Of a stretch of 202 nt of DNA, positions 1 to 202 are shown piece after piece (position 1 is the stretch's first letter; the number at the start of each line of letters is the position of its first letter). Made by a program: the position numbers and the translations under genes. The DNA comes from Escherichia coli. GTDB taxonomy: Bacteria > Pseudomonadota > Gammaproteobacteria > Enterobacterales > Enterobacteriaceae. The notes beneath the pieces were generated by a model that saw only the letters and a list, made by a program, of their open reading frames with translations, searched no databases and was not told where the DNA came from. Location of the stretch: NCBI RefSeq assembly GCF_003334385.1, contig NZ_QOWN01000231.1; one strand, written 5' to 3'.

Positions 1-119
1 TTACAGAAAAAATACCGCTCACCGCCCTGTACCGTCAGGTCGATTTCCCAGAGCACCACCCGCGGTGACTGCTCTGACTTAACCGACTCGTTCAGACTTT
101 CTTCGTGAATATCCTGCAT
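1..119 (-). CDS. L: Phage tail tip / minor tail protein L (lambda gpL family), 5' partial: start codon plus first 39 codons, gene continues beyond window position 1
   Basis: Minus-strand translation from the ATG (read from 119 down to 117) gives MQDIHEESLNESVKSEQSPRVVLWEIDLTVQGGERYFFC with no stop down to position 3; positions 2-1 are the first two bases (AA) of codon 40. This closely resembles the N-terminus of lambda L as I recall it (MQDI...EQS..VVLWEIDLT..GGERYFFCN). It is the first ATG after an in-frame stop (TGA, plus 135-137), with an AGGTGG Shine-Dalgarno 7 nt upstream. All three plus-strand frames have stops inside this interval (106-108, 80-82, 66-68). Confidence 0.85.
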   Translation of the reverse strand, partial: MQDIHEESLNESVKSEQSPRVVLWEIDLTVQGGERYFFC

Positions 120-202
120 CAGTTCACCACCTGCTCAATCGTACAACTGAAATCACTGTACCTGGCGTTATCTGTGACGCTCCACTCCCGGCACACCACC
201 CT
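119..202 (-). CDS. M: Phage minor tail protein M (lambda gpM family), 3' partial: last 27 codons plus TGA stop at 119-121; gene begins beyond window position 202
   Basis: The minus-strand frame ending at TGA (plus 119-121) is open to the window edge and translates as RVVCREWSVTDNARYSDFSCTIEQVVN*. The ...EQVVN* ending and the Cys/Trp-containing stretch before it resemble the lambda M C-terminus as I recall it (...KVTCAKWSSRVSMLRVEFSAEFEQVVN*). Its position immediately upstream of L, with a TGATG stop/start overlap, matches the lambda M-L arrangement. Confidence 0.8.
   Translation of the reverse strand, partial: RVVCREWSVTDNARYSDFSCTIEQVVN
127..132 (-). promoter_or_regulatory. Shine-Dalgarno (AGGTGG on minus strand) for gene L, embedded in the last codons of M
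   Basis: Plus strand 127-132 is ccacct, which is AGGTGG on the minus strand, followed by a 7-nt spacer (TGAACTG) before the L ATG. This is a good match to the anti-SD complement at typical spacing, consistent with translational coupling to M. Confidence 0.55.

Follow-up and report, generated by a model that had tools for sequence, protein, structure and literature searches.

The closest described counterpart of the locus considered here is the pair of tail-tip genes M and L of phage lambda. In the lambda reference genome (NC_001416), M occupies 13100-13429 and L occupies 13429-14127, so the two genes share a single base within a TGATG at position 13429. In the lambda virion, the two products are neighbors in the same complex, gpM as a hexameric ring and gpL as a trimer, and the gpL residues Cys173, 182, 205, and 212 bind an iron-sulfur cluster (PMC10721106).

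For the translation of overlapping genes, the closest counterparts are native gene pairs of E. coli. Overlaps of one base (-1) are the second commonest arrangement among same-strand gene pairs of this bacterium (PMC6728339, PMC10666635), and coupling by termination and reinitiation has been measured in four of five native pairs (PMC6728339). Removal of the Shine-Dalgarno (SD) sequence lowered coupling in four of the five, and gaps of about 20 nt abolished it (PMC6728339, PMC10666635). All of the tested pairs overlap by four bases (-4) and none by one, and the bioBF pair overlaps without being coupled (PMC6728339). The coupled pairs of Huber et al. (2019, 2023) resemble M-L in three respects, namely a stop-start overlap of -1 or -4, the location of the SD within the upstream gene, and the joining of the products in one complex; they differ in being chromosomal and -4 in every tested case, whereas the M-L pair described here is prophage-borne, -1, and known from sequence. 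In the literature searched, we found no published experiment specific to coupling of M and L or of the lambda late genes.

Here, we describe the M-L junction in a 202-nt stretch of E. coli DNA (contig NZ_QOWN01000231.1, hereafter the window), compare it with that of lambda and of near and distant relatives, and weigh what the arrangement may mean for the translation of L and for the evolution of the tail module.

Anatomy of the M-L junction

TGATG occurs once in the window, at 117-121 on the minus strand, where the text runs ...ATT GAG CAG GTG GTG AAC TGA TG CAG GAT ATT... (Table 1). The initial annotation had quoted this text and read from it a one-nucleotide overlap of TGA and ATG; the sequence matches, and the boundaries it drew agree with the annotated end of M and start of L, which fall on the same base of an identical prophage. 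The M-like frame has no stop from the window edge at 202 to the TGA (27 codons, ...RVVCREWSVTDNARYSDFSCTIEQVVN*), and the L-like frame has none from the ATG to the opposite edge (39 codons, MQDIHEESLNESVKSEQSPRVVLWEIDLTVQGGERYFFC). The ATG at 119-117 is the sole ATG, GTG, or TTG that the L frame offers after the preceding in-frame stop and ahead of the conserved N-terminus.

Taken by itself, the pentamer is no rarer than chance (0.49 expected, with at least one in 79 of 200 shuffles). It is the context that makes the junction non-random: the two reading frames have lambda M and L as their homologs, the lambda junction is identical, and, of 80 close relatives (viral contigs whose L is 96-100% identical, found with a single L protein query), 69 retain TGATG. 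The junction is the ordinary, already annotated M-L tail-tip gene boundary of a lambda-like E. coli prophage. Its description as a known lambdoid feature holds, the same junction being present in the lambda reference annotation.

Table 1. Features of the M-L junction and of the porin insertion; positions are those of the window unless a locus is named.
Feature	Position	Strand	Basis or remark
3' end of lambda-M-like gene (distal tail protein, Pfam Phage_min_tail)	119..202	-	last 27 codons and TGA
M stop codon, TGA	119..121	-	window sequence; annotated M end at L001 12084
L start codon, ATG	117..119	-	A at 119 common with M stop; annotated L start at L001 12084
5' end of lambda-L-like gene (tail hub protein)	1..119	-	39 codons and 2 bases
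Shine-Dalgarno of L, AGGTGGTGA	124..132	-	within the final four sense codons of M (Gln-Val-Val-Asn)
Junction island	108..135	-	identity profiles and haplotype table
Porin gene	L096 8541-9704 = NZ_CP075632.1 190583-191746		NCBIfam OmpC subfamily, 496.7 bits (cutoff 484)
Further loci with a porin gene at the junction	L060, L062, L064, L065, L068, L069, L074, L077, L083, L085, L094		

Gene identities and genomic context

Of 5,426 complete E. coli genomes, 1,869 contain a match to the window. The matches number 6,380 in all, the median per genome being 2 and the maximum 12; a further 150 phage records match as well, for the most part Stx-converting phages. Three E. coli chromosomes match it at 100% (contexts L001, L097, and L098). 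In each, the gene that ends within the window is annotated as 'phage tail protein' and the one that begins there as 'phage minor tail protein L', with one base in common. Gene order in these contexts is tape measure (H), M, L, K (a C40 peptidase), I, and J, with L between M and K, which is the order of the lambda tail module; the head genes of the L001 prophage are HK97-like.

Since the window holds codons 1-39 only, the profile tests of L were run on the full-length gene (232 aa) of the identical context. The protein aligns without gaps to lambda L at 77% identity, reaches 362.1 bits on TIGR01600, an NCBIfam equivalog with a cutoff of 70.75, and matches PF05100 (E = 1.1e-91). The four cysteines that bind the iron-sulfur cluster in lambda are all kept (NTC..DEC..DRC..KC..GC), at positions outside the window. 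M, of 113 aa (L001 11743-12084), has diverged from lambda M to 45% protein (E = 1e-32) and 49% DNA identity; it matches PF05939 over its full length (E = 2.7e-28) as well as phrog_14, and no NCBIfam model matched it. Lambda homology and the family profiles TIGR01600, PF05100, and PF05939 agree on the M and L identities that had been assigned from the window.

At its other end, M begins with a GTG that overlaps the tape-measure gene by 8 nt (L001 11743-11750, GTGGCTGA), whereas lambda M begins within a 4-nt ATGA overlap on H. The codon aligned to the lambda M ATG is ATA (Ile4), and the start of M is therefore shifted three codons upstream relative to lambda. Farther along the same prophage, 3' of the tail fiber genes (L001 20862-24202), lie a gene for an adhesin with a YadA C-terminal domain and the start of a gene for an S6-family (autotransporter) peptidase, which are likely virulence-type cargo or genes of an adjacent island.

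A Shine-Dalgarno sequence within the last codons of M

An SD had been proposed inside M, and the element is indeed there: AGGTGGTGA pairs with the 3' end of 16S rRNA, 5'-GAUCACCUCCUUA-3', at -12.1 kcal/mol and is one mismatch from its perfect complement. It is the best of its kind on the minus strand of the window, where the other candidate ATG, GTG, or TTG starts score -2.4 to -7.5 kcal/mol. A distance of 7 nt separates its GGTGG core from the ATG. Judged by this pairing energy, the element would be strong enough for fully independent initiation of L.

Aligned against the lambda M-L junction (GAACAGGTGGTGAACTGATGCAGGATATC in lambda, GAGCAGGTGGTGAACTGATGCAGGATATT in the window), the arrangement is identical and the SD unchanged. 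A run of 25 nt, CAGGTGGTGAACTGATGCAGGATAT (window 109-133), is the same in both, and near-identity extends over some 30 nt at the junction, as an island between flanks that are 23-50% identical.

The heptamer GGTGGTG, which the SD contains, occurs three times on the minus strand of the 202 bases (194-200, 125-131, and 54-60) against 0.12 expected, a count reached in none of 200 shuffles. The copies lie 69 and 71 nt apart and each encodes Val-Val (RVVC, QVVN, and RVVL); of the three, the middle copy alone is followed by a start codon, and lambda has the full heptamer at this middle site only. The threefold occurrence is probably the product of codon choice and chance. A reading of the heptamer as part of a Chi site was rejected, as the next base is T, A, or C, and the result is not GCTGGTGG.

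Junction form across relatives

Among the 80 close relatives, the 11 that are not counted with TGATG have a porin gene exactly between M and L. At locus L096 (NZ_CP075632.1), where the tail module is otherwise syntenic, M (7992-8333) is followed by a complete gene for a 387-aa porin and then by L (9901-10599), all three on one strand. Some 1.58 kb has taken the place of the 9 nt GGTGAACTG (window 128-120), and M and L lie 1.57 kb (1567 nt) apart. The inserted DNA includes an AT-rich region upstream of the porin gene and a strong hairpin that resembles a terminator (GGGGCGCATTGCGCCCC, then T7). Similarity to the M of the window ends directly after CAGGT; M then ends in EQVIR* (CAGGTAATAAGATAA), the SD motif is lost, and L has an SD of its own, GGGTGGA, which is weaker (-7.1 kcal/mol). 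With query coverage of 80% or more required, the arrangement is found in 52 complete E. coli genomes.

In the Salmonella prophage Gifsy-1, L is 75% identical, M ends in ...EQVVI, and L starts with MQDI. There is no overlap here; a 9-nt spacer with a canonical GAGGAGG SD takes its place, and the end of M forms no SD, its Val-Val being encoded by GTT GTT. The motif GGTGGTGA is present at the end of M where L starts there (in lambda and in both classes of close relative described below), and it is absent from the end of M in Gifsy-1, with its separate SD, and in the porin-insertion prophages, which implies that it serves L and not M.

A wider comparison took in 13 annotated relatives with L 27-75% identical, in which the starts are gene-caller predictions. 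The overlap is -4 in six (LittleDog, phiE125, KBS-S-2A, HK633, pAEv1818, and, at the K junction only, others) and -10 in one, while gaps of +3 or +9 are found in three and of +54 or +62 in two; SECphi27 and Mcat6, with L set apart from the M stop, are among those with spacers of 9 to 62 nt. The 4-nt overlap is the commonest form in the wider family. In the HK97-type pair gp17-gp18 and in HK633, LittleDog, KBS-S-2A, pAEv1818, and phiE125, the L homolog (28-40%) has a same-strand gene tight against it on the upstream side; the overlap there is 4 nt (ATGA or GTGA) compared to 1 nt here, and the SD pairs at -2.5 to -13 kcal/mol. On these comparisons, tight spacing of M and L appears to be common, and the one-base form appears particular to the lambda group. 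Phage mEp021 (L005 1-700) has an L homolog at 45% identity with its own AGGTG site; no M is annotated upstream, and three small opposite-strand genes lie there.

Translation of M and L

From the overlap and the SD, coupled translation of M and L is plausible. M and L are read on the minus strand within one long late operon, H-M-L-K-I-J. A ribosome terminating at the TGA of M would sit right on the ATG of L, where pairing between SD and anti-SD would hold it, making reinitiation on L possible, while free 30S subunits would also start L unaided by way of the strong SD. We infer, for the proportion as for the event itself, that ribosomes terminating on M most likely reinitiate at L. The reading that we favor, with good confidence, is accordingly a mixed one, in which the one-base overlap and the SD would tie L output partly to the translation of M, by termination and reinitiation, and leave it partly independent, by free initiation.

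The reason first offered for coupling, that tail assembly genes call for stoichiometric products, is imprecise. The lambda virion holds 6 gpM and 3 gpL (PMC10721106), and a ratio of 2:1 means that assembly does not require equimolar output of M and L.

A gate made of RNA structure, in which a hairpin would hide the L start until translation of M opened it, was rejected, as the folding of the 121-nt RNA across the junction does not stand out from that of shuffled sequences (z = +0.46; 130 of 200 fold as well) and the lone helix in contact with the SD has no conserved counterpart in lambda. An Rfam search of the window returned no known RNA element, even at E <= 1.

The foremost alternative is that L is translated wholly on its own from its strong SD and that the overlap is a by-product of tight packing in the late operon. 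The pairing energy of the SD and a start codon free of occluding structure would allow this. In Gifsy-1, SECphi27, Mcat6, and the porin-insertion prophages, L begins anywhere from 9 to 1567 nt beyond the M stop, which suggests that the family can express L without an overlap; bioBF provides an E. coli precedent for overlap without coupling, and the fact that 6 of the 13 junctions in the same prophage module (L001) overlap, by 1, 4, or 8 nt, suggests general compaction. Against this, the downstream gene depended on upstream translation in four of the five overlapping E. coli pairs tested, a terminating ribosome would cover the ATG so that some reinitiation is hard to avoid, and TGATG has been kept in lambda and in most of the close relatives. 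We regard wholly independent translation of L as possible but on the unlikely side, and retain the mixed reading.

The junction as a mosaic boundary

The 69 close relatives with TGATG fall into two classes, A and B, one with the M of the window (...CTIEQVVN*) and one with a lambda-like M (...AEFKQVVN*). Over the 3' end of the tape-measure gene (H) and all of M, the classes are 30-60% identical in nucleotide sequence (e.g., L016 compared to L020); from about 16 nt before the ATG of L (window ~135) and through L, they are 97-100% identical. This sharp rise in identity at about -16, from roughly 40% to roughly 98%, indicates that the initiation region of L travels with L and that a sub-module boundary lies on the junction. 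Mosaicism of lambdoid phages is well known, and the boundary fits it with no need for a special mechanism.

The same data admit a second explanation of the 25-30 nt of near-identity, namely that they owe their conservation not to selection on translation but to their role as a recombination joint between an H-M and an L-K-I-J sub-module. Both identity profiles are in its favor, the step between classes A and B as well as the island that stands out from its flanks in the lambda comparison, and so is the porin gene, inserted at exactly the same point. Selection on functional recombinants would, however, yield joints at gene boundaries in any case, with no special 'linker', and the island comprises exactly the SD, the stop and start, and the first codons of L, which translation alone would conserve; the recombinants at hand, moreover, amount to two M classes and one insertion type. 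We think it rather unlikely that recombination accounts for the island, although the idea is compatible with partly coupled translation of L.

Carried further, the ~25-nt island may be a preferred point of crossover and insertion, at which H-M and L-K-I-J halves re-assort and cargo such as the porin gene is admitted. The C-terminal QVVN of M would then be dictated by the ribosome-binding site of L and not by the function of M. We put this forward tentatively, as a conjecture with the chances against it.

Intactness of the genes and the prophage

The initial annotation took the overlap to confirm that both genes are intact at this junction. For the window itself this stands: both frames are open, and the three identical genomes carry M and L at full length, with no interruption of L beyond position 1 and no frameshift of M beyond 202. 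As a general rule it does not stand. Two close relatives, L073 (with GAG changed to TAG at codon 11 of L) and L090, have a perfect TGATG junction and SD together with a premature stop in L, so an intact junction is no proof of an intact gene pair; by their sequences, these two appear to be decaying copies.

The portal gene is annotated as 'frameshifted' (a pseudogene) in two independent prophages, the identical context L001 (2771-5517) and the porin-carrying L096 (1-1765). The flag could reflect real decay, a sequencing or annotation problem shared by both, or a recoding event. Given this flag, the junction by itself is no proof of a working prophage either, and the copy of the prophage that carries the window might never give rise to a functional phage.

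Many such multi-copy E. coli prophages are defective. The last explanation, that the window belongs to a prophage that is defective and in decay and in which the junction is an inherited relic with no present function, draws on this, on the portal flag, on the number of copies per genome, and on the L073 and L090 stops, yet it is quite improbable, as the three identical genomes have M, L, and the rest of their tail genes intact and the recurrence of the portal flag in an independent prophage makes an annotation problem or a shared feature possible.

Conclusions

We have placed a one-base overlap in a short stretch of E. coli DNA within the known diversity of lambdoid tail modules, and its significance can be set out as follows:

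(i) The reading frames and gene boundaries within the window are now fixed. Taken alone, this is of slight significance, being the re-identification of a junction that is routinely annotated in about one-third of complete E. coli genomes.

(ii) The junction offers a small, clean example of dual coding, in which the ribosome-binding site of L lies within the last codons of M and is gone once L has been relocated.

(iii) The overlap would be dispensable, if the porin-insertion prophages make tails.

(iv) The M-L boundary is a place of recombination within the tail module and of insertion of porin cargo.
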